A DNA stretch of 64,000 nt from contig CACEWA010000005.1 in assembly GCA_902563095.1 (NCBI GenBank), positions 9,911-73,910 on the forward strand, written 5' to 3'. Positions 7,945 through 45,700 of this stretch are shown one piece after another; positions within the stretch are counted from its first letter, which is position 1, and each line of letters opens with the position of its first letter. Below the pieces are notes generated by a model. It searched no databases and was not told the DNA's origin. It saw only the letters and a program-made list of their open reading frames with translations. This DNA is from an uncultured Candidatus Poseidoniales archaeon (lineage in GTDB: Archaea; Thermoplasmatota; Poseidoniia; Poseidoniales; Poseidoniaceae). The position numbers and the translations under genes were made by a program.

Positions 7945-7997
7945 CTCCGGTGGAGTGAGCCAAGAGTGGGTATGTCATAAGCAACGCGCCTAAATTA

Positions 7998-9569: not shown

Positions 9570-9637
9570 TGGTATGTCATTTTTGGAGGAAATAATACAG
9601 CGATAGGTTGTTGAAAGGGTTCCTCGCCCCTCGGCAT

Positions 9638-9713
9638 GGACACGTGGCCCAGCTGGATAAGGCGGTGGCCTCCTAAGCCACAGATCGCGGGTTCGAATCC
9701 TGCCGTGTCCGCC
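9638..9713 (+). tRNA. tRNA-Arg (anticodon CCT)
   Basis: Hand-folded cloverleaf. Acceptor stem GGACACG/CGTGTCC. Anticodon stem GTGGC/GCCAC with loop CTCCTAA. T-arm GCGGG-TTCGAAT-CCTGC. Discriminator G followed by genomic CC. Confidence 0.8.
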
Positions 9714-15678: not shown

Positions 15679-15751
15679 GCCCGCGTGGTGTAGTGGTCTA
15701 TCATGAAGCGTTGTCGATGCTTCGACCCGGGTTCAAATCCCGGCGCGGGCG
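15679..15751 (+). tRNA. tRNA-Asp (anticodon GTC)
   Basis: Acceptor GCCCGCG/CGCGGGC. Anticodon loop TTGTCGA, giving GTC. T-arm CCCGG-GTTCAAAT-CCGGG. Discriminator G, then genomic CC. Confidence 0.75.
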
Positions 15752-27829: not shown

Positions 27830-27963
27830 AACGCCCGTTATGAGTACGGTATATTATACAATCGCTCATATTTTACTATGTTTTTCGTATCAAATTTCCA
27901 TCCTTTTACTAGAATTTTGTGTATTTGGGCAATTAAGTGGTTGTGAGTGCCGCGGTTGATTAT

Positions 27964-28001
27964 TCAAATGCGCGCGCTAATCGCGCGTGATTGGAAATTT
28001 G
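27964..28001. promoter_or_regulatory. nested imperfect palindrome (TTCAAAT-GCGCGCG-CTAAT-CGCGCGT-...-ATTTGAA) between the GSII start and the S15 peptidase stop
   Basis: Seen directly. A GC-rich inner hairpin is flanked by AT-rich outer inverted arms. It could be the terminator of 28018..29808 and/or an operator for glnII. Confidence 0.3.
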
Positions 28002-30832: not shown

Positions 30833-31656
30833 CACGCATCCTCACGATGCCCTATGTAATGGCGAGCGGAGTGTGGGGCGAGCGTTGGTCAAATTCAACA
30901 TCCGATATTGCTCGTAAATATATGGAGGTTGCAACCCGCAAACAGTCCCTTGTGTGTTTGGCAGCAGACCGTAATACAATGGCTGGTTTGTTTGACTTGA
31001 TTGAAGAGGTTGGCCCTTATATTGCTGCATTGAAAACTCATGTTGACTTGGTTGACGATTGGACTTCAGATTCTTGGTCTGAATTTTGTAAAGCCGCAGA
31101 AGATGCTGATTTGCTAATATTCGAGGATAGGAAATTTGCAGATATTGGTAAAATTAGCCGTTCGCAAATGGCTGGAATTTACGACATTCGTTCATGGGCA
31201 GATCTAGTAACTTCACACCTGATTAGTGGCCCCGATGTTGTTGATGGATTACAATCTGGATGGGGCGATGTTGGCCGTAAAGGAGGGGTTTTACTATTAG
31301 CGCAAATGTCCAGTCGTGGAAACTTATTGGGCCCAGAATATACTGATGAAGTAGTAGCTAAAGGTCGTGAACACCCCGGTGTCTTCGGATTCATTGGTAA
31401 CGGTTCAAGGCCTGAAGAATTGAAGCAGTTGCGCAAAAAGGTTGGTGTCGAAAAAATGATTTGGACGCCCGGTGTAAATCTTTCAGTTGGTGATGGTGAA
31501 ATGGGACAAAGATATGGCGACCCTAGAGAAGCTGTTTTGGCAGGGTCGGATTGTATAATCGTGGGCAGTGGAATACACCGGGCGAACAATCCTGCTGGTG
31601 CTGCTAAAGAATACGCTTCTTCCTCATGGAATGCATTGGTTGAGAGAGAGTCATGA
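30829..31656 (+). CDS. pyrF: orotidine 5'-phosphate decarboxylase
   Basis: LVCLAADRNT...LKTHVDLV and FEDRKFADIGKISRSQ match the OMP decarboxylase active-site motifs (D.K..DIG.T). Confidence 0.7.
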   Translation: MTRILTMPYVMASGVWGERWSNSTSDIARKYMEVATRKQSLVCLAADRNTMAGLFDLIEEVGPYIAALKTHVDLVDDWTSDSWSEFCKAAEDADLLIFEDRKFADIGKISRSQMAGIYDIRSWADLVTSHLISGPDVVDGLQSGWGDVGRKGGVLLLAQMSSRGNLLGPEYTDEVVAKGREHPGVFGFIGNGSRPEELKQLRKKVGVEKMIWTPGVNLSVGDGEMGQRYGDPREAVLAGSDCIIVGSGIHRANNPAGAAKEYASSSWNALVERES

Positions 31657-31997
31657 GTTCTGTAGTAGCCGCTATTGTTGGAATACCAATTATGATTGGT
31701 ATTGGGTGGCTAGTATGGTATGTCTGGAATAATAACCGGCTTTTGGATAAAAAATTGGCTAGTGGTGATTTAGAATTACTAGATTCAACTAGTTACAAAG
31801 TTACCGAAGTGATTCGCGCTCCCGCTGGAAGTAGAGTAGAAAAAATCGCACTTCAACCAATGGCTGTAGATATGTCGGGTTATGTTCGAAAAGCATTGCC
31901 TGATGGAAGAATTGCATTAGTCCCGATTGCTGTAAATCAAGAAATCAAATCAGTCCATTCGTCCATGCATACCAACCAGCAGCCCCCAAGCCAGTGA
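31653..31997 (+). CDS. hypothetical single-pass membrane protein (114 aa)
   Basis: N-terminal TM helix AAIVGIPIMIGIGWLVWYVW. It overlaps the 3' end of the minus-strand gene by about 50 nt, so its coding status is uncertain. Confidence 0.35.
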   Translation: MSSVVAAIVGIPIMIGIGWLVWYVWNNNRLLDKKLASGDLELLDSTSYKVTEVIRAPAGSRVEKIALQPMAVDMSGYVRKALPDGRIALVPIAVNQEIKSVHSSMHTNQQPPSQ

Positions 31998-32616
31998 AAA
32001 TCACAAGAACGAATAGTAGGCGTTTTGCTTTACTAGATTTCTTCTTTGGTTGCACTGTTTCTTCTATTGGAAGGGGATTAATTGGCAAAGGTAGTGGTGC
32101 AGGAATAGGCATTGGCCCTTCATCCTCCTCAACCTCAATCATCTCTTCAACTGGATGAATTATATCTAAATCTTCTAAACCTGGGGCTTCAGGAATTGGA
32201 CCTAATACTAAATCCCAAATCGAATCTATTGCAGATGCTGTTATTGGTTTCTCAACCCAGCCTATAGCTCCAGCAGAATGAGTTGCGTCTTGGGCTAGTT
32301 CAGCCTGCCTTTTAGGAGCGGAGAATAATATTCGGCAATCTTTACCATGCTCTCTCATTTCAAGTGCCGCTAAATGGCCATCCATAGAAGGAATATCTAG
32401 TGCTAAAACAACTAATTCTGGATCTAGGCGAATATACTCGTCCACTGCTTTATCACCATCATCACATGTTACAACATTAAATTCTCTCTGGCGGAAAATG
32501 TTGGTTAATCTATGTAATGACATTTGGTTGTTGTCAACAAGAAGCACGGTAGGCGCTTCTTCGTCTTCGACATCGGTGACTCTAACCATGGCTAACAGGT
32601 ATGTGATTAACTTCAC
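31945..32616 (-). CDS. response-regulator receiver (REC) domain protein with Pro-rich linker and C-terminal transmembrane anchor
   Basis: The REC fold is recognisable: LLVDNN, phospho-acceptor-like LVVLALDIPSMDG, S/T in ILFSAP, and K in VEKP. It is followed by PIPAPLPLPINPLP and the C-terminal helix LLFVLVIFTGLGAAGWYAW. Confidence 0.6.
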   Translation of the reverse strand: MKLITYLLAMVRVTDVEDEEAPTVLLVDNNQMSLHRLTNIFRQREFNVVTCDDGDKAVDEYIRLDPELVVLALDIPSMDGHLAALEMREHGKDCRILFSAPKRQAELAQDATHSAGAIGWVEKPITASAIDSIWDLVLGPIPEAPGLEDLDIIHPVEEMIEVEEDEGPMPIPAPLPLPINPLPIEETVQPKKKSSKAKRLLFVLVIFTGLGAAGWYAWTNGLI

Positions 32617-32652
32617 ACTGATGAATCAACCGCTCAAATTAGTCGAAAGAAG

Positions 32653-33024
32653 TCATTCTTCTTCATCAGTAATGATTTCCGAGGGTGCGTCCTGAGGATT
32701 TGTGAATGTTTCGCGGATTGCTTCAGATTCTGCCACCTGATCTTCTAGAGCCCTCTGTCTTGCAGGCGCTTTGACAAACTGAAGTTGTAATTCAGAAATT
32801 ATCCCATTTAGCATAGTGCTTTCTTTAGTAGTAAGATTGCCGTCCATCTTTGTTTTAAGCATTGATAGGGTGTCTATGGCTGCTTTAGTTTCGCTCAAAT
32901 TGTAGTGGACTCTTCCTTCACTATCCTGCATTAATCCCATGTGCATCATGGCGCTTCTTTGCAACATGTGCACTAATTGAAATAGATGTGCGCTATTCTC
33001 ATCATCGAAGAATTCTTGTGCCAA
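32653..33024 (-). CDS. hypothetical acidic protein (123 aa)
   Basis: ORF between ftsY and the REC-TM gene, same strand and tightly spaced. I am not confident of any family. Confidence 0.45.
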   Translation of the reverse strand: MAQEFFDDENSAHLFQLVHMLQRSAMMHMGLMQDSEGRVHYNLSETKAAIDTLSMLKTKMDGNLTTKESTMLNGIISELQLQFVKAPARQRALEDQVAESEAIRETFTNPQDAPSEIITDEEE

Positions 33025-33033
33025 AATATCACC

Positions 33034-34446
33034 TCACTCGAATAATTGTTCTAGAAGCCAGTCTGGGTCGAATTGCATCAAATCGTCATACTCTTGGCCA
33101 ACGCCGCACAACACAATTGGTTGACCTGTAGCATGGGCGATTGAAAGACCCGCTCCTCCTTTGGCATCAGTGTCTAATTTTGTTAAAACAGCGCCATCGA
33201 ATTTCAGCATCTCTTGGAAATTCCTAGCTTGATCTACAGCATCATTTCCAGCCAATGCATCGCCAACGAATAATGTGAGATGTGGGTTCGCTACACGCCT
33301 AACCTTTTCCAATTCTGCCATTAGATTGGATTTGTTTTGCATTCTTCCTGCTGTATCGACCAAGACTACGTCTATGTCTTTGGCCCTAGCCGATTCTACT
33401 GCATCTCTGGTAATAGCGGCGGAATCTCCTCCGCGCTGCGATGAAATACAACGGATATTGAGTCGGCCACAATGAGTTTCTAATTGTTCGATTGCCCCTG
33501 CTCTGAAGGTGTCTCCTGCTGCTGCGATAACCGATATACCGCGTTGCTGTAAATTGTGGGCAACTTTGGCTACGGTTGTGGTTTTCCCAGTACCATTTAC
33601 CCCAACAAACATGATTACAACAGGGGTGTCCTTTTTGTCGATAAAACTTCGAATTGAAGCATAAAAATCCCAATAGCCGGCTTTCAAAATCCCCCTCAAA
33701 GCGCGTTTTAGGCTGGCTTCGAGTACTTTAGCCAAATCTGCACCTTTGCGTAATCTTTGTCCGATTAAATTTCGTTTGAGAGCCTCCATAACAGCAGTAA
33801 CTGCGTCTGAAGAAATGTCTGATTCAAGCATAATCCATTCAAGTTCTTCCATTAGATTGTTGAGTGCTTCGCTTTCTTTGATTACTCTACCGCCAGATTC
33901 AACAACCCCGCCACCTAAATCGATTGTTATTCCCTCGTCTTCAACAGATCCTATTCCGCCTATAGGTGCGGCTTTTACTTCGACTAATTGGCGGCCGGTT
34001 GTGGTGCGCATCATGTGTAAATCAACCTTTGAGCCAGCTAGCCTTTCGACTGCTTTTGCGCCGCGTTTTTTCATTTCTTTTTCACTGGCTTTCTTTCTTG
34101 AAGCTTCTTTTTTTGCCTCTTTGGCAAGGATTTTCTTTTCCTTACGAGTTAATTTGGTTGGGAGAGTATATTCTTCATCTTCTTCCCAATCATCCCACTC
34201 ATCATCGTTGTTTGAAGGGAGTTCTAATTCCTCCTCTTCATCCAATTCTTCCCAGTCATCATCATCGTCCCCAAAATCTGGTTTTGTATTGTAAGCAGGA
34301 ACATGGGTCCTAATTTTTGAAAATTCTTCGTGTTGAGATATTGCATCTAATGCTTCCTCGCTGCCTTCGTCGGCAGATAACGAATCTGTGTCGACTTCAG
34401 ATGCAGCCTCTCGGACCTTTTTGCGGAATTTATCGAATAATCCCAT
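33034..34446 (-). CDS. ftsY: signal recognition particle receptor FtsY
   Basis: SRP-GTPase G1-G5 motifs (GVNGTGKTTT, DTFRAGA, DTAGR, TKLD). A long acidic N-terminal A domain is present. Confidence 0.85.
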   Translation of the reverse strand: MGLFDKFRKKVREAASEVDTDSLSADEGSEEALDAISQHEEFSKIRTHVPAYNTKPDFGDDDDDWEELDEEEELELPSNNDDEWDDWEEDEEYTLPTKLTRKEKKILAKEAKKEASRKKASEKEMKKRGAKAVERLAGSKVDLHMMRTTTGRQLVEVKAAPIGGIGSVEDEGITIDLGGGVVESGGRVIKESEALNNLMEELEWIMLESDISSDAVTAVMEALKRNLIGQRLRKGADLAKVLEASLKRALRGILKAGYWDFYASIRSFIDKKDTPVVIMFVGVNGTGKTTTVAKVAHNLQQRGISVIAAAGDTFRAGAIEQLETHCGRLNIRCISSQRGGDSAAITRDAVESARAKDIDVVLVDTAGRMQNKSNLMAELEKVRRVANPHLTLFVGDALAGNDAVDQARNFQEMLKFDGAVLTKLDTDAKGGAGLSIAHATGQPIVLCGVGQEYDDLMQFDPDWLLEQLFE

Positions 34447-34454
34447 GATATCAC

Positions 34455-34982
34455 CTAATCATCCAAAGTTAATTCTCCGCCAACTCCTCTCCTACGGCGA
34501 CGTGTAGATTTTTCTTCGGGCTTTTCGGCCACTTCTTCTTCTACTGGTTGTGATTGTGTCATCTCTTTTGCTGCTGATTCAAAAGCGGTAGCAAGTTCTT
34601 CGATTCGTTGTGTTAACATGGCCGCTTCGGCTTCGAATTGAGATTTTAGTTCGGTTAAATCCTCGAGTCTTTTACTTACCAATTCTTCAGCGCTTTCTGC
34701 GCTTCTTTCTCCGAAAACACCACTGCCTAAGTCTACTATTGTAGTGGCGCCCTTTGGAATAGGGACCATCACACCTGCGCCCAGAGGTATGTGTCCGTTT
34801 TTACCCTGGGACAATGAGTTGAGGGCCCTACGTGTGTCGTCGTGTTCTAATTGAACGGTTTCTATCCTCTCAATTTGTTGATTTATTTCCTCAAGACGTT
34901 GACGATTCATATCGACAAGGCGCGCCATTCTCTGAAGTTCACTAGAATCAATCATGGCGCTCAGCCCTTGGGAGAAGCCCAT
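34455..34982 (-). CDS. pfdA: prefoldin alpha subunit
   Basis: Two coiled-coil arms flank a central beta-hairpin region (GAGVMVPIPKGATTIVDLGSGV). The position between rplX and ftsY is the conserved archaeal arrangement. Confidence 0.7.
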   Translation of the reverse strand: MGFSQGLSAMIDSSELQRMARLVDMNRQRLEEINQQIERIETVQLEHDDTRRALNSLSQGKNGHIPLGAGVMVPIPKGATTIVDLGSGVFGERSAESAEELVSKRLEDLTELKSQFEAEAAMLTQRIEELATAFESAAKEMTQSQPVEEEVAEKPEEKSTRRRRRGVGGELTLDD

Positions 34983-35006
34983 CTATGATGAACCCGACGA
35001 TTAGTT

Positions 35007-35279
35007 TCACTCTTCTTCGCCAACTGGAGCGATTGGCCCGCCTGCTGCTGCAATTTGTTCTCTAAACGCATTGAGAACCATTGGCTCTGAAGATGTTCTT
35101 GGATCTATTTCAGATACAGAATCGATATTGATGGCTCTGCGGTTTACCTTATGTCGGGAACCAATTATAGAATAGCAACGATGTTCAGCATCGTCTGCAG
35201 AACTTGCTACAAGGTCCATGTTGAACTTCTGTCGTTGGCTACCAAATGGTGCTGTGCCGGATACGCGGAAGGCTTGCAT
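35007..35279 (-). CDS. rplX: 50S ribosomal protein LX (L18Ae/L20A family)
   Basis: The N-terminus MQAFRVSGTAPFGSQRQKFNMDLVASSADDAEHRCYSIIGSRHKVNRRAINIDSV fits the LX pattern (M..FRV.G.F..G...QKF..E..A.S...A.E...S..GS.H...R). The gene-order context rplX-pfdA-ftsY supports the call. Confidence 0.65.
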   Translation of the reverse strand: MQAFRVSGTAPFGSQRQKFNMDLVASSADDAEHRCYSIIGSRHKVNRRAINIDSVSEIDPRTSSEPMVLNAFREQIAAAGGPIAPVGEEE

Positions 35280-35369
35280 GTTTCCGCCGACCTGTGAATG
35301 CGTCTTAAACGCGCTGGCGCGACCCTTTGAGTCTAAATCTTCAACCGTAAAGGGGATTTCACGTGTTTT

Positions 35370-37424
35370 GTGCGGGTAGCGGCGTTACTGGTATTTTCAT
35401 TGTTGATGTGCGTTGCATCTCCTGTTTTAGCCACTGCAAGCATCATGGATGTCGGCGAAGATTCGCCCTTGAAAGCCCTTGATGGAAGTGGTGTGGTAAT
35501 TGCAGTTGCAGATACAGGCATAGATATGGACCATTCTTGTTTTAGAAATTCTACTTTTGAGGTAGGAGGGCCTGGATTAGAGCATAGGAAAATCGTCCAC
35601 TTGAATGATACAGTGGATGATTGGGACACTCAAGGGCATCAACAATTTCGTCACGGCACCCATATTGCTGGGATTTTAGCTTGTGACCAATTAGATGGTG
35701 ATAGTAGTATGCGCTCTCTTTCTCATGGAGCAAAATTAGTGGTTCAAGATATAGTGAATTCTAGCGGATGGGTGGTACCTGAAGATGTCACTTCCCTATT
35801 GGCAGAATCTAGCCGCTATGGAGCAGTAATCAATTCTTGGTCTTGGGGAGACAATACTATAAATTACACGGAAAGGAGTAGTATGGTAGATAAATGGACT
35901 ATTGAAAATCCGTGGTCTCTGGTTTTTGTCGCCCCGGGAAATACAGGGAATATAATGTTAGAGCCATCAAATGCATACAACGTAGTTTCTGTAGTCGCTA
36001 GTGATTCAAATCAAAACGGAAGTTTGTGGTCTGGAAATTCGCACGGCCCTGATGTCAACGAAAGGCGTGGAACGTTTATTGCAGCGCCTGGTATGAGTAT
36101 AGTTTCAGCAAAGGCTGATGGAACAAAATTAGGAATGAATAACGAATCTTATGCAATGACTGGGACTTCGATGGCGGCACCTATGGCGGCATCGTTTACC
36201 GCACTATTACAAGAATTGATACAAACAGAATACGGTTACACCCCTTCTGCACCATTACTACGAGCAATGTTGGCTTCATCTGGCGAGGCTTTGACTGGAG
36301 GCGATCCTGATTCCATGCAAGGTTATGGTCGGCCATCTTTGGAAAGTTTTGAAAATGGATTTATCGTTCATGATTCGTATGCAGTAAATGATTGGGTAGA
36401 GTTAATTCAATCGCGCGGGGGTGTTCTTGAACAAATGATTGCCAACCCTTGGAATGGAAGTGGTGCTGCTGGCCCATTCCTCTCTGAAAATGAATCATGG
36501 AGTAAATTGTATCAGCCGATACCTGGTGAAGATGTGGAAGTTGTAATGTCTTACAATGCTAGACCTGGTGGGTATGAAATTGATGATTTGAGATTAATTG
36601 TAACAACTTCAGATGGCAGATTTGCAATAGACGACCAAATGAGTAATTCAGGATATAGTCAACTATACTATGGGTCTTTTAGAGAGCCTTTGCAAATGAA
36701 TTCTAGTAATGAAACCACAGTAATGATACGGCTACCTGCATCCCAACTAGAAGGTGTTGAATGGGTAAGTATCGAAGTTGTTGCTAATGACTTGTATGAA
36801 GGATTGAATGTTGGTTATTTGGGTGTCGAGGGGACGAAAATTGGGTTCGGAGTGATTGGAACTGGTCTGCAAAATTTAACTCAAAATACAGCTCCAAAAA
36901 TTACAGTTATCGATAGCCCAATGGGTGGAGAAAATTATTCTGAAAATTTTTCACTCTTATTGAATATTTCAGATGAAGAAAGTGATGGTTATGTGGTCGC
37001 TATTCGTCTAAACAATTCAAACTACTCGGTTGAATTAAGTGATTGTGCTATTATGTTAGAATATTCATCTAATGTTTCATGTGAAGTAGATATTGTTAGA
37101 GATTTGATTCCTAGACCAGTAAATAGAGAAGATTGGAAATTCGAAGTAATAGTTGTTGATGATAATTCTTCAATTTGGACGGGGTCTGAAATGTCTGTAT
37201 ATCTTAGCAATAATTTCTCAATTTTTTGGACTTCTCCTTTGATTGATAATCCTGAAGATTCGCCTTCCGTCGATCAGGATGAGGGAGTCGAGCAAAACCG
37301 CGCATTATTATGGGGAATTATTGGCGTTGTGTTAGGTGTTATTGTGGCCGCAGGTGTTATGTTTAGAGGTTTTGAGAGGCGGGTTTTGGATGGGGTTCCA
37401 CCGCCATTCAGAGAGGAAGAGTGA
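35370..37424 (+). CDS. secreted subtilisin-like serine protease (peptidase S8) with C-terminal membrane anchor
   Basis: Catalytic triad motifs VAVADTGID (Asp), HGTHIAGILA (His) and GTSMAAPMAA (Ser). N-terminal signal peptide. C-terminal hydrophobic helix plus charged tail. Confidence 0.8.
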   Translation: MRVAALLVFSLLMCVASPVLATASIMDVGEDSPLKALDGSGVVIAVADTGIDMDHSCFRNSTFEVGGPGLEHRKIVHLNDTVDDWDTQGHQQFRHGTHIAGILACDQLDGDSSMRSLSHGAKLVVQDIVNSSGWVVPEDVTSLLAESSRYGAVINSWSWGDNTINYTERSSMVDKWTIENPWSLVFVAPGNTGNIMLEPSNAYNVVSVVASDSNQNGSLWSGNSHGPDVNERRGTFIAAPGMSIVSAKADGTKLGMNNESYAMTGTSMAAPMAASFTALLQELIQTEYGYTPSAPLLRAMLASSGEALTGGDPDSMQGYGRPSLESFENGFIVHDSYAVNDWVELIQSRGGVLEQMIANPWNGSGAAGPFLSENESWSKLYQPIPGEDVEVVMSYNARPGGYEIDDLRLIVTTSDGRFAIDDQMSNSGYSQLYYGSFREPLQMNSSNETTVMIRLPASQLEGVEWVSIEVVANDLYEGLNVGYLGVEGTKIGFGVIGTGLQNLTQNTAPKITVIDSPMGGENYSENFSLLLNISDEESDGYVVAIRLNNSNYSVELSDCAIMLEYSSNVSCEVDIVRDLIPRPVNREDWKFEVIVVDDNSSIWTGSEMSVYLSNNFSIFWTSPLIDNPEDSPSVDQDEGVEQNRALLWGIIGVVLGVIVAAGVMFRGFERRVLDGVPPPFREEE

Positions 37425-37499: not shown

Positions 37500-38504
37500 A
37501 TGGGAGAAAGACTCTATGTTGGAATTGATTTGGGAACATACCAATCAACTATTGCAAGTAGTGCAGGATCATTAGAAACTATTGAGACGGTTGTAGGACG
37601 TCCAAAAGACCCGGTTGCTAGAAATTTCCTAGGCCGAGATGTTCTATTCGGTAATGATGCTCTGAAGAATAAATTGGCTTGTAACCTATACCGCCCAATG
37701 GCTGCTGGTGTTGCGCAAGATGATGAAGCAAACCTCGCTGCTGCTAAGGCGTTTGTAACTCACCTTATCGAGACTGTTGGACCTGAAGATTACGACGAGG
37801 TTTTCGGAGTAATTTGTTCTCCATCACACGTTTCATTCACAGACAAGAGCAATTTAGTTGCTACACTTCGTGGTCAAGTCAATGCGATTATGGTGGTAAC
37901 CGAGCCTTTCGCTACAGCATACGGAATTGGAGAGATTTCTGGTTCAATCTGTGTTGACATTGGAGCAGGTACAACCGATATTGCTCGCCTTTACGGAATC
38001 TTCCCAACTGAAGAAGACCAATTAACAATCCAGGAAGCTGGAGATTGGATCGATTTGCAACTTATGGAATTAGTTCAGAAGAAGTACACAGGTGCTCAAG
38101 TAACAAAGGATATGGTTCGCAAGTGGAAGGAAGAGTTTTCCTATGTTAATGGTGATGACCGAGAACAGATGGTCGAATTATCTGTTGAAGGTAAGAAGCA
38201 AGTTGTCGATGTTGGCGACTTGATCAAGTCTGCTTGTTCAATGGTTGTTGGAAAGGTTGGGTCTGCAATCAAAGCAATTGTAGCAACGGCTGACCCTGAA
38301 TATCAACCAATTTTGCGGAATAACATCATCCTATCTGGTGGCGGCTCTCTAATCGATGGAATTGCTGACGCTATTGCAAATGATATCGCAGATATTGGAG
38401 ATGTGACCGTAACTTGTGTTGACGACCCTATCGAAAAGGTTGCAACTGGTGCTATGGCACTGGCCCAAGACATGCCTGATGAGCAATATACCGCCATCAA
38501 CTAA
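37500..38504 (+). CDS. actin-fold ATPase (MreB/ParM/archaeal actin-like family)
   Basis: Phosphate-1 GIDLGT (residues 8-13), phosphate-2 DIGAGTTD, and adenosine motif ILSGGGS, in the canonical order and spacing. The 334-aa size is that of MreB/ParM/Ta0583-type proteins. Confidence 0.7.
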   Translation: MGERLYVGIDLGTYQSTIASSAGSLETIETVVGRPKDPVARNFLGRDVLFGNDALKNKLACNLYRPMAAGVAQDDEANLAAAKAFVTHLIETVGPEDYDEVFGVICSPSHVSFTDKSNLVATLRGQVNAIMVVTEPFATAYGIGEISGSICVDIGAGTTDIARLYGIFPTEEDQLTIQEAGDWIDLQLMELVQKKYTGAQVTKDMVRKWKEEFSYVNGDDREQMVELSVEGKKQVVDVGDLIKSACSMVVGKVGSAIKAIVATADPEYQPILRNNIILSGGGSLIDGIADAIANDIADIGDVTVTCVDDPIEKVATGAMALAQDMPDEQYTAIN

Positions 38505-38554
38505 GGGTCTCACAATGGGCCCATAGGGCCCTCCAACCAATGAAAGGTTGAATA

Positions 38555-39847
38555 ATGGTAGTTGTGCGATTGGAGTTAATGACGTTAGGCGCAGATACCC
38601 CAGGTGGCATCCGTCGTATGACTGAAACGACTGGTGATGAGCGAGCAGCGCTCGAAGGAATGTTACGCGCATATCCCGTTGACCAACTCGTTGAAGAGGT
38701 CCTTGTCGCATGGCAAGAATTGGCTGATAGAAACGAAGATTTGGTTACTTCAAAACAGAGATTGAGAGTTTTAGAACTCGACCTTGCGGAGCGTAAAGAC
38801 GAGGTTGCTCCAGAAGTGGCTCAATTGAAGGCTGCAGAGAATGACCTTGAAGAATCAGGAGCAAGAATTGTTCACTTGGAAAGATTGCTCGAAGATACAC
38901 GAAAAGAGTTGGCAGAAAATAGTTCCAGTATTTCTGTAGAAGAAAGGGAGGCTCTTGAAAACGAAGCCTCTCAATTAAGAGAATTAACTACTCAACAAGA
39001 CGATGTTATCGCTGAAATGGAAGGCCGTATGGGACAAATGGTCGAAGCTTTGGAGCGGGCGGCTGATGCTGGTCTAACCAGTGTTACTGCAGATGAGGTC
39101 CGCGCTTTGAAAGCCCAATCAGATTCACTGTCTAGCGACTTGGAGGCTGAGAAGGCCGCCAATAATGCACTTGAAGAAGAACGTCAAAGATTGAGAGATA
39201 TTGCTGATAGATTGCGTGGATTGTTAGATGCTCGCGACACCCGTCTTGCGGAATTAGAAGAACAATTAGAACGAGTGATGCAAGGCCCAAGATCGGTTTC
39301 TGCAGAACATGATTATCTGGTTGAGCAAATTGAAGAATTAAAGCGTAGATTGCTTGAAAGAAATCGCGAATATGAATCTCTAAGAAGAAGAGAGAGAAGA
39401 TTGCACAATGATGTATTCGAAAGGGATGAGAGAATCCAGCAAATGTCCCTAACTATTGGTGATTTGGAATCTGCACTAACAGACAGAACCTCAGAGGTTC
39501 GTGAATTAGAATCTCAAAGAGATACTGCGGTAAACCAACTCGATGGAGTAAAGCGCTCTGAAAGAACTCGTGAAGTTGTAGGACGTGTGTTTGCTGATTC
39601 CTTATCTCTTGTACGTAGTCATGATGAAAGGGAATTACGCAAGGAGATTTATTCCAATTCGCCTGATGTAGAGAGAACTATTTCAGCGCCAAATGCTGAT
39701 GATATGCAAACTTTAGCAGATGGTGGAACTGTCGACCTTGATACTGCATTAGAAGTTATTGAGAAAGGAATGGATGTTCCGAAAGAGGCACGTCCAAATT
39801 CCCCTGGTGGAACAGGAGACCCTGTAATCTACGAAGACGAGGATTGA
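38555..39847 (+). CDS. acidic coiled-coil protein (430 aa), hypothetical
   Basis: Almost entirely heptad-like E/L/R/A/Q-rich sequence, with no enzymatic motifs. It starts 50 bp after the actin-fold gene on the same strand. Confidence 0.55.
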   Translation: MVVVRLELMTLGADTPGGIRRMTETTGDERAALEGMLRAYPVDQLVEEVLVAWQELADRNEDLVTSKQRLRVLELDLAERKDEVAPEVAQLKAAENDLEESGARIVHLERLLEDTRKELAENSSSISVEEREALENEASQLRELTTQQDDVIAEMEGRMGQMVEALERAADAGLTSVTADEVRALKAQSDSLSSDLEAEKAANNALEEERQRLRDIADRLRGLLDARDTRLAELEEQLERVMQGPRSVSAEHDYLVEQIEELKRRLLERNREYESLRRRERRLHNDVFERDERIQQMSLTIGDLESALTDRTSEVRELESQRDTAVNQLDGVKRSERTREVVGRVFADSLSLVRSHDERELRKEIYSNSPDVERTISAPNADDMQTLADGGTVDLDTALEVIEKGMDVPKEARPNSPGGTGDPVIYEDED

Positions 39848-40647
39848 ATTCCTTCAACTATTTCGTTAATTCTTTGCCGAATTTCATCCATATTCGCAGC
39901 GTCTTCTGTGAGAGTTCCAGTAACAATCCAGTTTGCTCCTGCATTTGCAGCTTTAGCTGCTTGCTCCCCTGTCCTAATTCCGCCACCTACGATTAAACAC
40001 AAATCTTCGACTTGATTTGCGGCTTCAATGCATTTTGGTTCTACTTGTTTTGATGCTCCACTACCTGCTTCGAGATAGAGGATTTTAAATCCGAACATTT
40101 TCGCTGTAATCGCATATGAATGAACTAATTCGTGTTGGTTTGCTTCGATCAATTCGGCTTGACCAACTTCTCCAACTTTACCCCCTGGAGAAAATACAAG
40201 ATATCCTGTTGGTAGTGCTTCGACACCAAATTTCTGAAGATATGGCGCTCCACGTAGTTGTTCACCAACTAAAAATTTCCTAATTTGTGAATTCATCAGC
40301 ATCATGAATGTTATTCCGTCTGCAGCTGGTGAAAGTGCATGAGCGCCTCCAGGGAATAGAACTACTGGTATTTTCCACATCTCTTCATCTGAATTTGGGT
40401 CTTGACTTGCAGCAAAAATTTGCAGTTCAAGGGCTTCTTGGATTGATTTACATGTTTGATGGACTACTTCGTCTGGCGTATCTGTTGATCCCCCAACGAA
40501 TATCATCTTGGAGCCTGCTTCAATTGCTGCAATTGCCCTTCTAGTAGCAATTTCTGCACTCTGTTTTCCTGGATCGATAAGTGTGATGTGCCTACAACCG
40601 CGACTTTGGTCAAGAACGTAATTTAACAAGCCTTCATCCGGTATCAT
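39829..40647 (-). CDS. geranylgeranylglyceryl phosphate synthase (PcrB/GGGPS family)
   Basis: TLIDPGKQ, FVGGSTD, YLEAGSGA, and LIVGGGIRTGEQA are the GGGPS/PcrB signature motifs of the TIM barrel. Confidence 0.8.
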   Translation of the reverse strand: MIPDEGLLNYVLDQSRGCRHITLIDPGKQSAEIATRRAIAAIEAGSKMIFVGGSTDTPDEVVHQTCKSIQEALELQIFAASQDPNSDEEMWKIPVVLFPGGAHALSPAADGITFMMLMNSQIRKFLVGEQLRGAPYLQKFGVEALPTGYLVFSPGGKVGEVGQAELIEANQHELVHSYAITAKMFGFKILYLEAGSGASKQVEPKCIEAANQVEDLCLIVGGGIRTGEQAAKAANAGANWIVTGTLTEDAANMDEIRQRINEIVEGIQSSSS

Positions 40648-40648
40648 G

Positions 40649-41290
40649 TCAACTCAACTCCTGAAGGGAATGAATGATGTTTTTGGCGATTTCTTCTCCT
40701 TCCACTATTGCTTCATCAGCCCAAATATAATTCGAAGAAAGTGGATGTTCCCCTTGCATTATCTCTAACCAACCCTGTACAGGCCTAGGTAAATCTCCTC
40801 TAATCCAACATTCAACTAAATTATCCGCTCTTTGAAAACAAAATCTGTCATCCTTCATATCATTCAGAATAAATTCTGATGGGATATTTTTCTCTATTGT
40901 AATTCCACCAGTCCAGTTTTCTAAAACATATTGAGTTCCGGATTGCGGCCAACCCGGAGCAACTGATTTTCCTCCTGTACAATTGATTGAACCGTCAGGA
41001 GCTGTTGATTTTAATTTGATAATTCCTCCTGAATCTGCGACTTTTTTTGCTAGTTCTTTTTCATACCATTCTCTTCTAAACGCCCAACCAAACTCTATTT
41101 TTTTAGCCGAAGTCTTTTCGATAAAATCTTCTGGTAGATTTTTGATTATCCCAGGTGACCTAACTGGATTTCCAATTTCTTGTCTTGCTTCATATAGAGT
41201 AACTTGATAATTATTTTTTAGAAGATAAAGAGCACAAGATAGTCCACGAACACCGGCTCCTGCAACGTTAATCATCAACTGCACCTTCAA
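40649..41290 (-). CDS. short FAD-binding protein resembling the N-terminal part of geranylgeranyl reductase / FixC-type flavoproteins
   Basis: Rossmann motif INVAGAGVRGLSCALYL. EARQEIGNPVRSPGII aligns to the GGR E.RQEIG.PVRCGEGL segment, but with Ser in place of the conserved Cys. It is only 213 aa. Confidence 0.45.
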   Translation of the reverse strand: MKVQLMINVAGAGVRGLSCALYLLKNNYQVTLYEARQEIGNPVRSPGIIKNLPEDFIEKTSAKKIEFGWAFRREWYEKELAKKVADSGGIIKLKSTAPDGSINCTGGKSVAPGWPQSGTQYVLENWTGGITIEKNIPSEFILNDMKDDRFCFQRADNLVECWIRGDLPRPVQGWLEIMQGEHPLSSNYIWADEAIVEGEEIAKNIIHSLQELS

Positions 41291-41474
41291 TACTTAGAGC
41301 GAAAACTGGACAAGAGGGAATACAGTGTTCACATAATGTGCATTTTTCTTGTTCTACTATTGCTAATCTATTTTGTAGATCTAAAGCGTTTGTAGGACAT
41401 AGAGCTATACATGCACCACAGCCATAACATAAGTCTTCATCAACAACGAAGGTTGCTGTTGATGTCTCGGCCAT
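41268..41474 (-). CDS. 2x[4Fe-4S] ferredoxin
   Basis: Two CxxCxxCxxxCP clusters (CYGCGACIALCP, CTLCEHCIPSCP). Size is 68 aa. Confidence 0.75.
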   Translation of the reverse strand: MAETSTATFVVDEDLCYGCGACIALCPTNALDLQNRLAIVEQEKCTLCEHCIPSCPVFALSIEGAVDD

Positions 41475-41788
41475 ATTACTTCCAGTGGATATGCATTCAT
41501 TGTTTCATCGGCGATATGACCGTTGGAAAATAATGATTTGTTAGTGAATGTATTAATTCGAATAAAAATATTTTTTCAAAGGAAATTGAATTTTAGAATT
41601 TTACTTGGTAAAAGGAAGATGTATGATTACCCCTACGTTTCCATTGGAGTAGTAAAATTAGATATGTGACTAAGTAAGGAATGATGGAATTTCAACGTGA
41701 ACGAAGTAAGACCCATTGATGTTTAACGCGTCTAGTCCATAAGTATAACGAGATTTGATTTGATCATAACACCCTCAAAATATCTCCA

Positions 41789-43156
41789 ATGGAAACACAG
41801 GGGTCCGACATATTCATTCATGATAATCAATACCGACTAATCATGGTGTTTTATTCTCCAGGTAGAACAACATCATATCCTGAAATTCCACCATCTAATG
41901 GAATTCGATATCATTACCTCGGAGGAGGGGATGAAGTTGGTAATGTTGGATGCGTATTCGAAGATAAAAACGGTACAAGAATGCTACTTGATTATGGGTT
42001 AGCACCAACAGATCCTCCAAAATATCCAAGAGAAGCTCCAGACATCAAAGATGCAGTAATTACTCATTCTCATATTGACCATTTAGGTATGGCCCCTTGG
42101 TTGTGTTCTAATCATAGAACTAGATTACATGGGACTCCATTAACTTCAAAGATCAGCCATATGATGTGGAATGATTGTTACAAAGTTAGTCGACTAGAAG
42201 GATATCCTTTAGCATGGGATAAAAGAGACATAGATATTGCAACATCATCTTGGCACACTCATCAATTCGGTGAAAAATGGGAAAAGGATTCCTGGAAACT
42301 CAAACTAACAAAAGCGGGACATATACCAGGAGCAGCAATGTTGAACGTTGAAACCGATACCCACAAATTACTCTTCACTGGAGATTTTGACACTAGAGAT
42401 TCTCCATTAGTTTCTGGAGCTAAACCAGAAAAATGTGACGTATTGTTTGTTGAAGGGACCTATGGTGGTAGGGATCATCCGAGTAAAGAAGAAACAATTC
42501 AAGCATTTATTGACAGAATCTTAGAAGTTACTCAAAGAGGAGGAACAGCACTTATTCCAGCATTTGCAAATGGTAGAACTCAAGATATTGTAATGACTCT
42601 TCACAAACACTTACCAGAATTGGATGTCCATGTTGATGGTATGGGTAAAAGCGTAGCAAGGCTGCAGATGGAACACCCGGAATCACTTCGAGACCCACAA
42701 GCATTGGAAGATGCGTGGAAATGGTGTAGAAGAGTTTCTTCTAAATCTGACAAAAAGAAAGCATTAGATGCAGATTGTATAGTTTCAACATCTGGAATGA
42801 TGGATGGAGGACCATCGATTTGGTATCTAAATAGGTTGAGAATGGATCCAAGAAACGCAATCCTCCTCACGGGTTATCAAGCATCAGGCTCAGGCGGCAG
42901 GATGCTCTTGGATGAAGGGCACGTCCCTATTTGGGACAAGAGGACTCCAATCGATCTTGAAGTAAGCCAATTTTCATTCTCAACACACGCTGGCCATTCA
43001 GATATTGTCGAATTTGCAGAAAAATGTCAAGCAGAAACTGTAGTTATTTACCACACAGACCCAAATTACGCAAGACCTCCATTAGTAGAAGAATTAGAAT
43101 CTAAAGGCCATATAGTTCACACTCCAATAAACGGTGAATCAAAAATATTGGAATGA
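41789..43156 (+). CDS. metallo-beta-lactamase fold hydrolase, beta-CASP family (RNA-processing nuclease, aCPSF/RNase J-like)
   Basis: The HxHxDH motif THSHIDHLG. Downstream Asp and His motifs (FTGDFD, EGTYG, STHAGHSD) are consistent with the beta-CASP architecture. Size is 455 aa. Confidence 0.6.
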   Translation: METQGSDIFIHDNQYRLIMVFYSPGRTTSYPEIPPSNGIRYHYLGGGDEVGNVGCVFEDKNGTRMLLDYGLAPTDPPKYPREAPDIKDAVITHSHIDHLGMAPWLCSNHRTRLHGTPLTSKISHMMWNDCYKVSRLEGYPLAWDKRDIDIATSSWHTHQFGEKWEKDSWKLKLTKAGHIPGAAMLNVETDTHKLLFTGDFDTRDSPLVSGAKPEKCDVLFVEGTYGGRDHPSKEETIQAFIDRILEVTQRGGTALIPAFANGRTQDIVMTLHKHLPELDVHVDGMGKSVARLQMEHPESLRDPQALEDAWKWCRRVSSKSDKKKALDADCIVSTSGMMDGGPSIWYLNRLRMDPRNAILLTGYQASGSGGRMLLDEGHVPIWDKRTPIDLEVSQFSFSTHAGHSDIVEFAEKCQAETVVIYHTDPNYARPPLVEELESKGHIVHTPINGESKILE

Positions 43157-43201
43157 TAATTTAGCCGAAGCGATTGAATATGGTGACATTCACCGTCACC
43201 C

Positions 43202-43489
43202 ATGGCAACCAAGAAAACACCCCCTCCTGGTAAGCGCCGAAAGAAGAAGCGTAAGATTCGTCTATCTCTAAAGAGTTCAAAGATGAAGAAAACAGATTCT
43301 TATAGCGACCAAGTTGGGTGGTCTACAGACGTTGGAAGGACCTTAGGAGAAGCTCCAAAATCAAAAGAACCTGATACAATAAAACATCAATGTTCACTCT
43401 GTGGAGCAATTATGAAAGTTCCAAAACCGAAAAAGGCCCGCTATACAATTTCATGTCCACACTGCGGACACGAAGACGCATTCAATTAA
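43202..43489 (+). CDS. basic zinc-ribbon protein (hypothetical)
   Basis: The N-terminal 30 aa are K/R-rich (GKRRKKKRKIRLS). The C-terminus carries C-x2-C...C-x2-C (CSLCG...CPHCG). Confidence 0.45.
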   Translation: MATKKTPPPGKRRKKKRKIRLSLKSSKMKKTDSYSDQVGWSTDVGRTLGEAPKSKEPDTIKHQCSLCGAIMKVPKPKKARYTISCPHCGHEDAFN

Positions 43490-44269
43490 TCAGAACCAAA
43501 TTCCGGCAAGTTCTAGGATTTGCCTGATTGCAGCAATCAACATTACAGATACTAGAGTCATTCTAACAGTGTTCTGAGAGAATTTTTCAGAACCAAACCT
43601 GGAACCCAGATAACCACCGATTAAAACTGCGATTGCAAACGGTGCCAAAACAACAAAATCAATCACTAATTGTCCAGAAATAGAACTTCCAATCAAACCA
43701 GCAGCCGAGTTTACCCAGATGAATAAAGCTGCAACACCTGCGGTTGTTTTTGGATCACCCCATCCAAATATGAGAATAAGTGGCGATAAGAAAATTCCAC
43801 CCCCCACCCCAATTATTCCACTTAACAATCCGATAGCAGCACCCACAATCAGAGCGATGTGAACTTTAGGAGGGCTCGAAAACAACTCTTCAGATTCTCC
43901 AGATTTTGTAGTATACAATTTCCAAGCAGCAAACACCAGAGTTATCGATAACAAAGTGTCATAAACATCATCATTTACTCGTAAATATCCGCCAATTAAT
44001 GCTGCAGGGATACTTGCAACTATGAAAGGAATTGCCAATTTTGAATCAAAAAAATCATTTTTCCAATATGCGAAAAAAGCCATACCTGCAACTAACAAAT
44101 TCAAACTCCAAGCATGTTGTTTCAACCATGCAGGATCGTTAGAAGCATATACAGTTAGAGATAATACTGCCAGATATCCAGAAGCCCCGCCGTGGCCTAC
44201 GCTAGCATACATTGCTGCAACCAATGAAAGCGCAACCAAGAGAATTAACTCTCCTAACACCACTTCCAT
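43490..44269 (-). CDS. TauE/SafE (TSUP) family membrane transporter
   Basis: Two repeated halves with glycine-rich motifs VGHGGASGYLAV and GVGGGIFLSPL. About 8 TM helices. Confidence 0.7.
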   Translation of the reverse strand: MEVVLGELILLVALSLVAAMYASVGHGGASGYLAVLSLTVYASNDPAWLKQHAWSLNLLVAGMAFFAYWKNDFFDSKLAIPFIVASIPAALIGGYLRVNDDVYDTLLSITLVFAAWKLYTTKSGESEELFSSPPKVHIALIVGAAIGLLSGIIGVGGGIFLSPLILIFGWGDPKTTAGVAALFIWVNSAAGLIGSSISGQLVIDFVVLAPFAIAVLIGGYLGSRFGSEKFSQNTVRMTLVSVMLIAAIRQILELAGIWF

Positions 44270-44326
44270 ATACTAATCGAGGTGAAACTAGACGAATATT
44301 GTGTTGCTGTTTTTAAGATTATTTTC

Positions 44327-44728
44327 TCACCAAAAAGCAGCGGCCAGTAATACGAGTATTACCCATGCAACAATACTACAACAACACAATGCCGCTAATT
44401 CTTTCTTTAGATTAAACGATTTATTTTCTTCTTTCTGATGTTCTTCAAATTCTTTTTCAGTAACTGAAAACCCTTCACTAATATTTTCATTTTTTGATTT
44501 ATTTTGATTTTTTGATTTGTATGTTTTTATTGTATATTTGATAAGTCTTATAGCCACTTTTATAATCCAATATGAAATATATACAATTGTAAAGAAAAAT
44601 GAGTAAAGAAGTAACCAATCTAAAAATGTAAACTCTTGAGGGCAAAAACCAAAACAACCCATATTTGAAAAATCAAGATTGGGCCCACCTACATCACCAT
44701 ATGCCATACTAACAAACCCCCTTCTCAA
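44327..44728 (-). CDS. doubtful ORF; possible small membrane protein in an AT-rich island
   Basis: The ORF exists, but the region is low complexity and AT-rich. It has two hydrophobic stretches. It may be non-coding. Confidence 0.2.
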   Translation of the reverse strand: MRRGFVSMAYGDVGGPNLDFSNMGCFGFCPQEFTFLDWLLLYSFFFTIVYISYWIIKVAIRLIKYTIKTYKSKNQNKSKNENISEGFSVTEKEFEEHQKEENKSFNLKKELAALCCCSIVAWVILVLLAAAFW

Positions 44729-44851
44729 ATTGTTCTACTTATTTTCACTAATAAAAAAAATCCCGGATTCAAAGTAATTGACACTCAATTCAACTTCCAA
44801 AGATGCTTTACGCAGAACTAAACACGACAACACAACATAAGGTGTTCACTG

Positions 44852-45661
44852 ATGGATTTGATGGTTATACTCGCGATAATTTGTCTACTTCTAGTAGCGG
44901 TCGCCTTTAGCCCACTTGGCCTTGGAGGCGGGATCTTATACGTTCCAATAATGCACTATATGCTTGATTGGGAGATTAAAGAAGCATTAGTTGCCTCTTT
45001 GACTTTAGTTTTGATGGTTAGTTTAGGGAGTAGCCTAGCACATTCAAAATCAGGATTTGCAAACCACCAGGTTGCAAAATGGGGAAGGATTGCAGCCGTA
45101 CCTTCAGCTATAATTGGTGTATTATTATCAGGAATTTTATTGTCTTGGGTGGGCGATATAGGAATCAAAATTATCGCTGCAATAGTTATCACATTCGTTT
45201 TGGAGCGAACGATCCGTACACCTCAAACTATTAATTCAGCAGAATTTACAGAAACATACCTATCTGAAAAAAGAAACCAATATTTTGCAGGTTCATCATT
45301 CGCAGGAATGGCTGCAGGAATATTAGGAATAGGCGGTGGTGCGATTTTAGTTACCCTCAATCGCTCATTATTGAAAATGGATTCAAAAAAATCGGCCGGC
45401 ACCAGTTATCTTGTTACAGCAACCATCGTCCCAGTTGCTTTATTGAGTCATTTACTCATCAGTCAAAATTTAGAAAAAATTGTTGAAAATTCTGGAATCT
45501 TAGCCATGATTTTAGTCCCAGTAATGGTATTTGCATCTGCGTTTTTTGGGGCCAAATATGCAATAAAATATCTTCCAAAGCAAGTAGTTACAGGAGTATT
45601 CTTGTTTGTAGTATCAGTTAGTTTATTGAGATACATTATTGATTTTGCATCACTAATTTGA
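44852..45661 (+). CDS. TauE/SafE (TSUP) family membrane transporter (paralog of 43490..44269)
   Basis: Motifs LGLGGGILYVPIM and GIGGGAILVTLN. Confidence 0.7.
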   Translation: MDLMVILAIICLLLVAVAFSPLGLGGGILYVPIMHYMLDWEIKEALVASLTLVLMVSLGSSLAHSKSGFANHQVAKWGRIAAVPSAIIGVLLSGILLSWVGDIGIKIIAAIVITFVLERTIRTPQTINSAEFTETYLSEKRNQYFAGSSFAGMAAGILGIGGGAILVTLNRSLLKMDSKKSAGTSYLVTATIVPVALLSHLLISQNLEKIVENSGILAMILVPVMVFASAFFGAKYAIKYLPKQVVTGVFLFVVSVSLLRYIIDFASLI

Positions 45662-45700
45662 GACCGAGAAAACCAAGGGCAACCACTTCTTGGTAATGAC

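Follow-up and report, generated by a model that had tools for sequence, protein, structure and literature searches.

A 64,000-nucleotide stretch of contig CACEWA010000005.1 (hereafter the window), which comes from a marine group IIa archaeon of the family Poseidoniaceae, contains five consecutive open reading frames (ORFs) on the minus strand between positions 31945 and 35279. In the order in which they would be transcribed, these encode ribosomal protein L18Ae/LX (eL20), prefoldin alpha (pfdA), the signal recognition particle (SRP) receptor FtsY, a small protein with a DUF1844 domain, and a tail-anchored, atypical receiver-domain (REC) protein. A preliminary description of this DNA had listed five co-directional frames at this position, which the ORF list confirms, and had suggested that a signalling-type protein is co-transcribed here with the SRP receptor and ribosomal genes.

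Gene content of the cluster

Families were assigned with the curated models of Pfam and NCBIfam, each score being set against the cutoff of its family. The gene for LX (35007..35279, 90 aa) matches PF01775 (E = 1.2e-13) and NF001981 (57.8 bits against a cutoff of 40); that for prefoldin alpha (34455..34955, 166 aa) matches TIGR00293 (63 against 53.9) and PF02996; and that for FtsY (33034..34446, 470 aa) matches TIGR00064 at the equivalog level (316 against 260.7), PF00448 (E = 4e-72) and PF02881, with a long, charged, A-domain-like N-terminal region (about residues 1-190) preceding the NG domain. All three lie above the curated family cutoffs and their order is kept on one strand, also in relatives. 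The identities and the conserved archaeal order proposed in the preliminary description are thus upheld, LXa(L18Ae)-pfdA-ftsY being a documented segment of the L31e ribosomal-protein cluster in Asgard and other archaea (PMC10833476). The two genes that follow encode the DUF1844 protein (32653..33024, 123 aa; PF08899) and the receiver-domain protein (31945..32589, 214 aa; PF00072).

Comparison with relatives altered the starts of two of these genes. The longest prefoldin alpha ORF extends to 34982 (175 aa), but the start is most likely the ATG at 34955, because in one relative (L008) a stop in the same frame precedes it and because relatives carry a GGTGAG Shine-Dalgarno sequence 5-7 nucleotides (nt) upstream of the start, with ATG-GTT-GAT-TC conserved at 34955. 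For the receiver, the only start common to all relatives is the ATG at 32589 (MVRVTDV..., giving 214 aa), and 214-aa proteins annotated by NCBI are 100% identical to its product from this codon. The GTG at 32616, from which the ORF had originally been read, was rejected, since in L015, L017, L025, L028, L029, L031 and L033 the extension that it would add contains stops or indels that change the frame. The TTG start of the DUF1844 gene (33024) falls at the same position as the ATG, GTG or TTG starts of relatives. Measured from the longest ORFs, the gaps are 24 nt (LX-pfdA), 8 nt (pfdA-ftsY), 9 nt (ftsY-DUF1844) and 36 nt (DUF1844-receiver); the pfdA start at 34955 widens the first to 51 nt and the receiver start at 32589 widens the last to 63 nt, the other two staying at 8 and 9 nt. 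Hence the values of 8 and 9 bp given in the preliminary description stand, that of 36 bp does not and that of 24 bp most likely does not; a gap of 28 bp ascribed to the 123-aa gene fits no junction, the real one being 9 nt.

Conservation of the cluster across Poseidoniales

The window FtsY was used as the query in a scan of one genome per GTDB species. This yielded 74 Poseidoniales species loci, in which FtsY identity falls from 96% to 45% and which cover both Poseidoniaceae and Thalassarchaeaceae, together with four Bacillota loci that we treated as noise. The window proteins and a DUF1844 profile were placed on all ORFs of these loci; 72 of the 74 were informative, L022 and L057, which are cut by contig ends, being left out. 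Homologue searches found almost solely close Poseidoniales relatives; the nearest proteins, with 99-100% identity, carry the names Candidatus Poseidoniales or Poseidoniaceae archaeon, which places the window in marine group IIa. In 71 of the 72 informative loci the profile mapping places pfdA, ftsY, DUF1844 where it occurs, and the receiver gene on one strand, and at this frequency the arrangement is far beyond chance. Both extra genes therefore accompany ftsY across the order, and the lack of conservation in relatives that the preliminary description had named as grounds for abandoning the association was not found.

In 47 loci DUF1844 separates ftsY from the receiver gene; in 24 it is absent and the receiver gene comes directly after ftsY. 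A neighbour-joining tree built from the NG domain of FtsY groups these 24 loci in a single, Thalassarchaeum-like clade, with all DUF1844-containing loci as its sister group, a topology that implies a single gain or loss of DUF1844 and by which the adjacency of ftsY and the receiver gene appears to be ancestral to the order. The DUF-less clade (L055-L080) is also distinguished by about 2.6 kb inserted between LX and pfdA (for example at 1813-4424 of L058), with genes for a membrane protein, for a CysQ-like bisphosphate nucleotidase and for an APS-kinase-like (CysC-like) protein fused to a nucleotidyltransferase. In these genomes the S8 protease gene upstream is gone and the link between LX and pfdA is broken, with ftsY-receiver and a conserved box upstream of pfdA retained.

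Beyond the receiver gene, pyrF and a gene for a small membrane protein, both convergent with the cluster, are present in 71 of the 72 informative loci. Since pyrF is no less conserved than the receiver gene, the adjacency could be due simply to common descent of the gene order. According to one account of this kind, which we consider possible but on balance unlikely, DUF1844 rides on the ftsY transcript and the receiver is an unrelated membrane signalling protein that never moved and that is phosphorylated by an unlinked kinase in Poseidoniaceae. Such an account is consistent with the finding that pyrF and the small membrane-protein gene have been kept at the locus to the same degree as the receiver gene, and with the loss of the adjacency in one species (L050); it sits poorly with the DUF-less clade, in which adjacency and co-orientation of ftsY and the receiver gene survive a 2.6-kb insertion between LX and pfdA and the disappearance of the S8 gene.

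The convergent gene itself (31653..31997, plus strand) encodes 114 aa with an N-terminal transmembrane segment and no Pfam or NCBIfam match, and is called as a gene in most relatives. It shares 4 nt (ATGA) at its start with the stop of pyrF, and its last 53 nt (31945-31997) run into the receiver gene, so that the transcripts of the two strands must overlap.

Expression signals within the cluster

Upstream of LX lies a TATA-like box, GTTTAAGA (35303..35310, minus strand), which is conserved in relatives as GTTTAAGA, GGTTAAATC or GTTTATAC. Its TTTAAG occupies -30..-25 from the LX ATG, a position held in all clades, which implies that LX mRNA would be leaderless or nearly so and that the LX promoter would be the main one of the cluster.

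Shine-Dalgarno sites were scored as matches of at least 5 nt to GGAGGTGATC within -18..-3 of the start, for which the random background is 4.8%. By this measure matches occur before ftsY in 69% of loci and before DUF1844 in 62%, as against 5% for LX. In the window the ftsY site (AGGTGAT, 34450..34456, minus strand) lies over the pfdA stop and the DUF1844 site (GAGGTGAT, 33028..33035, minus strand) lies over the ftsY stop, TGA (33034-33036). Moreover, the ftsY-DUF1844 gap is 4-12 nt or an overlap in 35 of 47 loci, among them three species with ATGA start/stop overlaps (L052, L054 and L078), and is 9 nt in most Poseidoniaceae. Given the short gaps and the Shine-Dalgarno sites over stops, we conclude that pfdA, ftsY and DUF1844 are read as internal, Shine-Dalgarno-led cistrons, with DUF1844 coupled to ftsY; DUF1844 is very probably co-translated with FtsY, and co-expression of the two genes is well supported by these signals.

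The receiver gene is different. A Shine-Dalgarno match precedes it in 19% of DUF1844-containing loci and 4% of DUF-less loci, and no such site is present in the spacer of the window or in Poseidoniaceae spacers, as is the case for promoter-proximal LX and unlike ftsY and DUF1844; some Thalassarchaeaceae do have a GGAGG-like Shine-Dalgarno sequence before it. The spacer is 63 nt long in the window (32590..32652, minus strand) and 41-69 nt after DUF1844 in general (63 nt in 23 of 47 loci), or, in the DUF-less clade, about 46-50 nt after ftsY. In an alignment of 71 spacers those of Poseidoniaceae showed an A/T-rich box, AATTTGA (32634-32640 in the window), a strongly conserved 12-nt box, CGGTTGATTCAT (32621-32632), and TCACA...TGTTAGCC directly before the receiver ATG.

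A comparable element occurs in the LX-pfdA spacer, where the box CGTCGGGTTCAT (CGTCGGGTTCWT) at 34988..34999 (minus strand) is kept across the order and is found before pfdA in all clades, including the one in which LX is 2.6 kb away. The receiver box (as GCGGTTGATTCAT) is related to the pfdA box CGTCGGGTTCWT, and the two change in parallel between clades, the DUF-less forms being CGACGCCTTCAT before pfdA and CCCCTTCTTGA or CCGTTCATGAG before the receiver gene. Each box can form a small hairpin with the variable sequence just past the stop codon that precedes it. For the LX-pfdA hairpin the mean minimum free energy is -5.19 kcal/mol, compared with -3.12 kcal/mol when the 5' arms are shuffled, and for the DUF1844-receiver hairpin it is -4.72 compared with -3.39 kcal/mol; in each case the observed value was reached by 0 of 100 shuffles. 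The spacer boxes could be promoter elements or the 3' arms of hairpins.

No oligo-T terminator separates the receiver gene from the genes upstream: runs of at least five T occur in 9% of the spacers against a background of 5%, which is no enrichment, and the window spacer has none, so that read-through is possible. At the same time, the combination of a conserved spacer of 46-65 nt and its conserved box with the missing Shine-Dalgarno sequence in Poseidoniaceae suggests that the receiver gene may be a separate regulatory unit. The joint expression suggested in the preliminary description is well supported for ftsY and DUF1844, with their 9-nt gap, Shine-Dalgarno sequence over the stop and ATGA overlaps, and meets mixed signals at the receiver gene. 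A fuller model along the lines of the preliminary description would be a single five-gene operon in which a phosphorylation-controlled regulator tunes co-translational targeting or secretion in response to a signal. The common strand and short gaps, the missing oligo-T terminator and the GGAGG-like sequences of some Thalassarchaeaceae are in keeping with such an operon, whereas the Poseidoniaceae receiver, with a conserved upstream element in place of the Shine-Dalgarno sequence of an internal cistron, argues against it. The same spacer bears on the account in which the receiver gene merely stayed where it was: the conserved box and the missing Shine-Dalgarno sequence agree with independent expression, but in the DUF-less clade the receiver gene begins about 48 nt after ftsY, with neither a TATA-like sequence nor a T-tract in between.

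As a candidate regulon motif CGGTTGATTCAT was rejected, for it occurs once in the 64-kb window, other near-matches lying inside a repetitive coding region, and its 7-mer CGGTTGA is not enriched (9 occurrences against 7 expected). Note that CGGTTGA is also found in the conserved divergent region between LX and S8 (35320-35370), on the S8 strand just downstream of the TATA-like CTAAATCT of S8, and that a copy of the receiver box matching at 10 of 12 positions, CGGTTGATTATT, lies at 27953-27964 between an S15 peptidase gene and glnA. A scan of the window for bacterial sigma-70 promoters and intrinsic terminators, a type of scan that is not applicable to archaea, gave counts at the level of shuffled sequence and was set aside. 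Rfam has no match inside the cluster.

The DUF1844 protein

The 123-aa protein had been described as having no recognisable motifs; in fact residues 14-85 match PF08899 (DUF1844) with an E-value of 4e-19 and 69 bits against a cutoff of 27. At E-values up to 1e-3 this family comprises 806 clusters at 50% identity, mostly bacterial in appearance, and its members have a core of about 85 residues followed by variable charged tails. Conserved core residues are G30, I50, K59, N63-L64 and E68, and the Poseidoniales branch has a conserved acidic tail of its own, ETF..P..(G/A)P.E....DEEE. An AlphaFold2 model (mean predicted local distance difference test score, pLDDT, 82.7) contains three helices and a short beta-hairpin. 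A search of the PDB gave no sequence match, and the best Foldseek hit (E = 0.65) was to generic helical bundles.

For the distant relatives of DUF1844, genomic context was drawn from a representatives search and a metagenome scan. A link between bacterial DUF1844 and the SRP was rejected on the basis of 80 loci without an SRP gene within 5 kb. Among other bacterial neighbours, GluRS lies upstream in 6 of 66 loci and a KamA-like radical-SAM gene lies nearby in 8 of 66. With no SRP gene near bacterial DUF1844, and with a different partner on record in Deinococcus-Thermus (see below), there is no general tie between DUF1844 and the SRP; the DUF1844-ftsY link is specific to Poseidoniales.

The tail-anchored receiver protein

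That the last gene encodes a receiver domain, as originally reported, is borne out by a match to PF00072 (59.1 bits against 30.2, over residues 24-130 of the longer, 223-aa ORF). In the 214-aa numbering used from here on, the REC domain spans residues 14-129 (nt 32203-32550, minus strand). It is followed at residues 130-142 (nt 32164-32202, minus strand) by a motif, GPIPEAPGLEDLD, that is invariant in the family alignment. A motif search found this element, GPIPxAPGLxDLD, after REC in 63 of 65 orthologues, the two exceptions differing at one position, and a fuller invariant peptide, G(P)IPxAPGLxDLDx(I/L)(H/Y)P (residues 130-146, 32152-32202), is conserved order-wide, and better than the phospho-site residues are. 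GPIPxAPGLxDLD matched no known motif; it is probably a partner-binding linear motif.

Beyond the motif come an acidic, proline-rich linker, a basic cluster (KKKSSKAKR) and a single hydrophobic helix (residues 191-210 of 214; nt 31960-32019, minus strand) with a 4-residue tail, so that the membrane tether noted in the preliminary description is retained. The tail has 0-8 residues in 62 of 65 orthologues; two lack a 15-residue hydrophobic stretch and L053 has a tail of 20 residues. An AlphaFold2 model of the receiver, which at a pLDDT of 50 (shallow alignment) was used for secondary structure only, has a (beta-alpha)5 fold, a disordered linker and a terminal helix. As read from the hydrophobic stretches and the predicted helix (187-210), the single C-terminal transmembrane segment and short tail are those of a tail anchor, a predicted topology in which the REC domain is cytoplasmic.

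HMMER alignment to the CheY and Spo0F structures pairs D12, D13, D57 and K109 of CheY with D19, N20, D65 and K114 of the window receiver, and T87 most likely with S90. In all members of the family D13 is replaced by N and the beta3-alpha3 loop is 2 aa short, and the intact quintet D12/D13/D57/T/S87/K109 with a canonical loop is not what the window receiver has. In the DUF-less clade the changes go further: H, V or L replaces D12, 19 of 23 members have N in place of D57, and all 23 have T or S in place of K109. As far as the alignment can tell, this is the pattern of a pseudo-receiver. "Signalling-type protein" is thus a description that is true in name only, since the protein is atypical in the window and has lost the phospho-acceptor aspartate and conserved lysine in the sister clade. 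We infer that the receiver acts by binding rather than by phosphotransfer.

Nor did the surroundings reveal a signalling partner. Assignment of the receiver as CheY was rejected (NF041367, CheY_Halo, 39.8 bits against 200), with no che genes in the neighbourhood. In one close syntenic relative the annotation shows neither a HisKA nor a HATPase_c domain in the 8 kb to each side of the receiver gene, and the 64-kb window holds no second receiver. The literature that we searched contained nothing on Poseidoniales response regulators or histidine kinases, and a census of archaeal two-component systems counted 3 histidine kinases and 4 response regulators in 11 Thermoplasmata genomes (PMC5847659).

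These observations bear on both of the accounts introduced above. The model of one operon under a phosphorylation-controlled regulator gains from the acceptor aspartate that Poseidoniaceae retain; against it stand the D13N replacement and short loop of all members, the loss of the acceptor and K109 in a whole clade that still has the receiver beside ftsY, the lack of an annotated kinase near the gene in the one relative examined, and the scarcity of two-component systems in the class, and we regard it as very unlikely. For the account based on inherited synteny, retention of D12, D57, S/T87 and K109 in the window would allow for an unlinked kinase, whereas D57N and K109T in the DUF-less clade argue against a conserved, kinase-driven function, as does the near absence of such systems from Thermoplasmata (PMC5847659).

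The topology of the receiver raises a further idea, namely that it is a membrane docking or regulatory partner of FtsY that engages the SRP receptor via REC or GPIPxAPGLxDLD, with DUF1844 as an accessory similar to YlxM. The model for such a partner would be SR-beta, the beta subunit of the eukaryotic SRP receptor and an Arf-like GTPase with an N-terminal anchor that serves as the membrane anchor of SR-alpha, the FtsY homologue. The adjacency of ftsY and the receiver gene, order-wide on one strand and apparently ancestral, is compatible with this idea, as is the translational coupling of DUF1844 to ftsY; with the tail anchor, REC and the invariant motif would be held on the cytoplasmic side of the membrane, which is the site of FtsY action, and phospho-site loss beside strict conservation elsewhere suggests binding rather than switching. 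The evidence is positional throughout, however: the receiver lacks both GTPase motifs and homology to SR-beta, DUF1844 has neither a Pfam match to UPF0122/YlxM nor an informative fold match, and bacterial DUF1844 was never near SRP genes in the sampled loci. We think it improbable that the analogy holds.

A model for the extended cluster

We favour, with a probability of roughly 0.6, the reading that the locus is an order-wide, lineage-specific extension of LX-pfdA-ftsY that is organised in three sub-units (LX, pfdA-ftsY-DUF1844, and receiver) and in which the receiver serves as a binding adaptor. According to this reading the conserved boxes would divide the cluster at the two spacers, whether they act as promoters or as RNA punctuation. 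DUF1844 would be made from the ftsY mRNA by coupled translation and thereby be co-expressed with the SRP receptor; it may be a small cytoplasmic protein, helical in structure and belonging to a family found mainly in bacteria, with a general housekeeping role, probably related to translation or protein biogenesis, that was recruited into the ftsY operon only in Poseidoniales. The box before the receiver gene would be punctuation (an internal promoter or a small hairpin) rather than a coupling signal, and the gene may be expressed by read-through, by its own initiation, or by both. Its product would be a tail-anchored, largely phosphorylation-independent adaptor, and not a classical response regulator, that presents GPIPxAPGLxDLD at the cytoplasmic face of the membrane. 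From position alone the likeliest partner would be the membrane-acting FtsY/SRP machinery, which is the weakest step of the model; a functional link to SRP targeting is suggested by synteny.

Several observations weigh against this reading. Everything said here about transcription units is derived from signals in the sequence and from their conservation. The hairpins have low stability, with energies of -2 to -11 kcal/mol overall and of about -2 to -6 kcal/mol in the window (-2.2 for LX-pfdA), RNAalifold found no consensus fold in either spacer, and the conserved boxes do not resemble the canonical TATA box of LX. In L050 ftsY is followed by a convergent msrA, with neither extra gene in the roughly 5 kb examined downstream, and in L045 a 3.2-kb insertion (6426-9644), which encodes a large, repetitive, secreted or anchored protein, separates ftsY from DUF1844, with DUF1844 and the receiver gene staying together beyond it. 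The synteny of the unrelated pyrF means that adjacency may be inherited rather than selected, and the phospho-site residues that the window receiver retains make phosphorylation possible in Poseidoniaceae. In bacteria, 80 metagenomic DUF1844 loci (L085-L164) contained no FtsY, Ffh, receiver or pfdA gene within 5 kb on either side, the commonest neighbour (20 of 66 loci) being a same-strand NAD-kinase-like gene with GGDGT directly downstream. DUF1844 has elsewhere been listed as a low-variability, uncharacterised family and linked to D-Tyr-tRNA deacylase in Deinococcus-Thermus (PMC9425974).

Taken together, the layout is a real, lineage-specific operon variant and as such a modest lead, not proof of signalling control over targeting. 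Regulation of co-translational targeting, to which the preliminary description had pointed, found no support in this analysis, and the unrelated convergent pyrF is as conserved as the genes on which that proposal was built.

As Poseidoniales, which are among the most abundant planktonic archaea, have not been cultured, the function of their genes has to be approached chiefly through gene context. The analysis corrects the gene model and maps a variant of a housekeeping operon across the whole order; it also yields a first consistent genomic partner (ftsY) for an archaeal branch of the uncharacterised DUF1844 family, and a new REC architecture, made up of REC, the invariant GPIPxAPGLxDLD and a tail anchor, with progressive loss of the phospho-site. 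If the receiver or DUF1844 works with FtsY, archaeal co-translational targeting would have an extra accessory component; to our knowledge there is none beyond SRP54, SRP19, SRP RNA and FtsY. If the receiver, possibly together with DUF1844, docked or tuned FtsY at the membrane as a REC-fold analogue of SR-beta, the SRP receptor of archaea would have a membrane partner not recognised so far, in one of the most abundant archaeal groups of the ocean. Otherwise the locus is a clean example of conserved synteny that mimics functional linkage, since pyrF is equally conserved.

Other features of the window

The sole Rfam matches in the window are three tRNA genes on the plus strand (9638-9711, 15679-15751 and 62480-62563). 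A 484-aa ORF on the minus strand (14179-15633; local G+C content 0.50) has internal tandem repeats, which read on the plus strand as GAA/GAG-rich blocks of about 93 nt and GGxCC-rich blocks; these blocks suggest a highly acidic, repetitive, Pro/Gly-rich protein. On the plus strand at 37500-39847 an actin/MreB-family gene lies beside one for a 430-aa coiled-coil protein (PF24161, CCDC39-like). The pair is syntenic in relatives, whose actin-like gene is annotated as PF06723 (MreB_Mbl) with weak Salactin and Actin matches. From about 40000 to 46000 the G+C content is 0.37-0.41, against about 0.45 elsewhere, and this region may be a genomic island or a glycosylation/surface-gene region.

Relation to known systems

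The literature that we searched contained neither the extension, nor the REC architecture, nor the coupling of DUF1844 to ftsY. The first three genes have the same order and strand as the archaeal LXa-pfdA-ftsY segment. Unlike that segment (PMC10833476), the Poseidoniales version starts at LX behind its own TATA box, beside a divergent S8 protease gene and with no L31e/eIF6 upstream; it is, moreover, extended by DUF1844 and the tail-anchored receiver, and in one clade LX stands 2.6 kb off.

The receiver resembles stand-alone CheY-like REC proteins and pseudo-receivers in having a (beta-alpha)5 fold that scores above the Pfam cutoff and no enzymatic or DNA-binding output domain, and like them it presumably acts via protein-protein contacts. 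FrzS and KaiA are known examples of phosphorylation-independent receivers. Unlike stand-alone REC proteins, the Poseidoniales receiver has a tail anchor, GPIPxAPGLxDLD, the D13N replacement, a short loop and a clade with D57N and K109T. Most archaeal REC-only proteins in the census have intact active sites and no conserved neighbourhood (PMC5847659); the Poseidoniales receiver departs from them on both counts, its conserved neighbourhood being that beside ftsY. With SR-beta it shares, by analogy only, the properties of a small alpha/beta protein with a single transmembrane segment that could hold the SRP receptor at the membrane; unlike SR-beta it is a REC domain without a P-loop (no GxxxxGK[ST]) and its anchor is C-terminal.

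Firmicutes have ftsY-ylxM-ffh operons, whose YlxM (UPF0122), a small protein of helical structure, is reportedly an accessory factor of the SRP pathway. DUF1844 would be comparable as a small helical protein (about 110-125 aa) that is encoded right after ftsY and co-expressed with it; unlike YlxM it has no UPF0122 match (at E up to 0.1 the only Pfam matches besides PF08899 were weak and unrelated), and no ffh follows. Relative to bacterial PF08899 proteins the domain is the same, but the archaeal subgroup has its own tail and sits after ftsY; in the sampled bacteria the most frequent position is before an NAD-kinase-like gene (20 of 66 loci).

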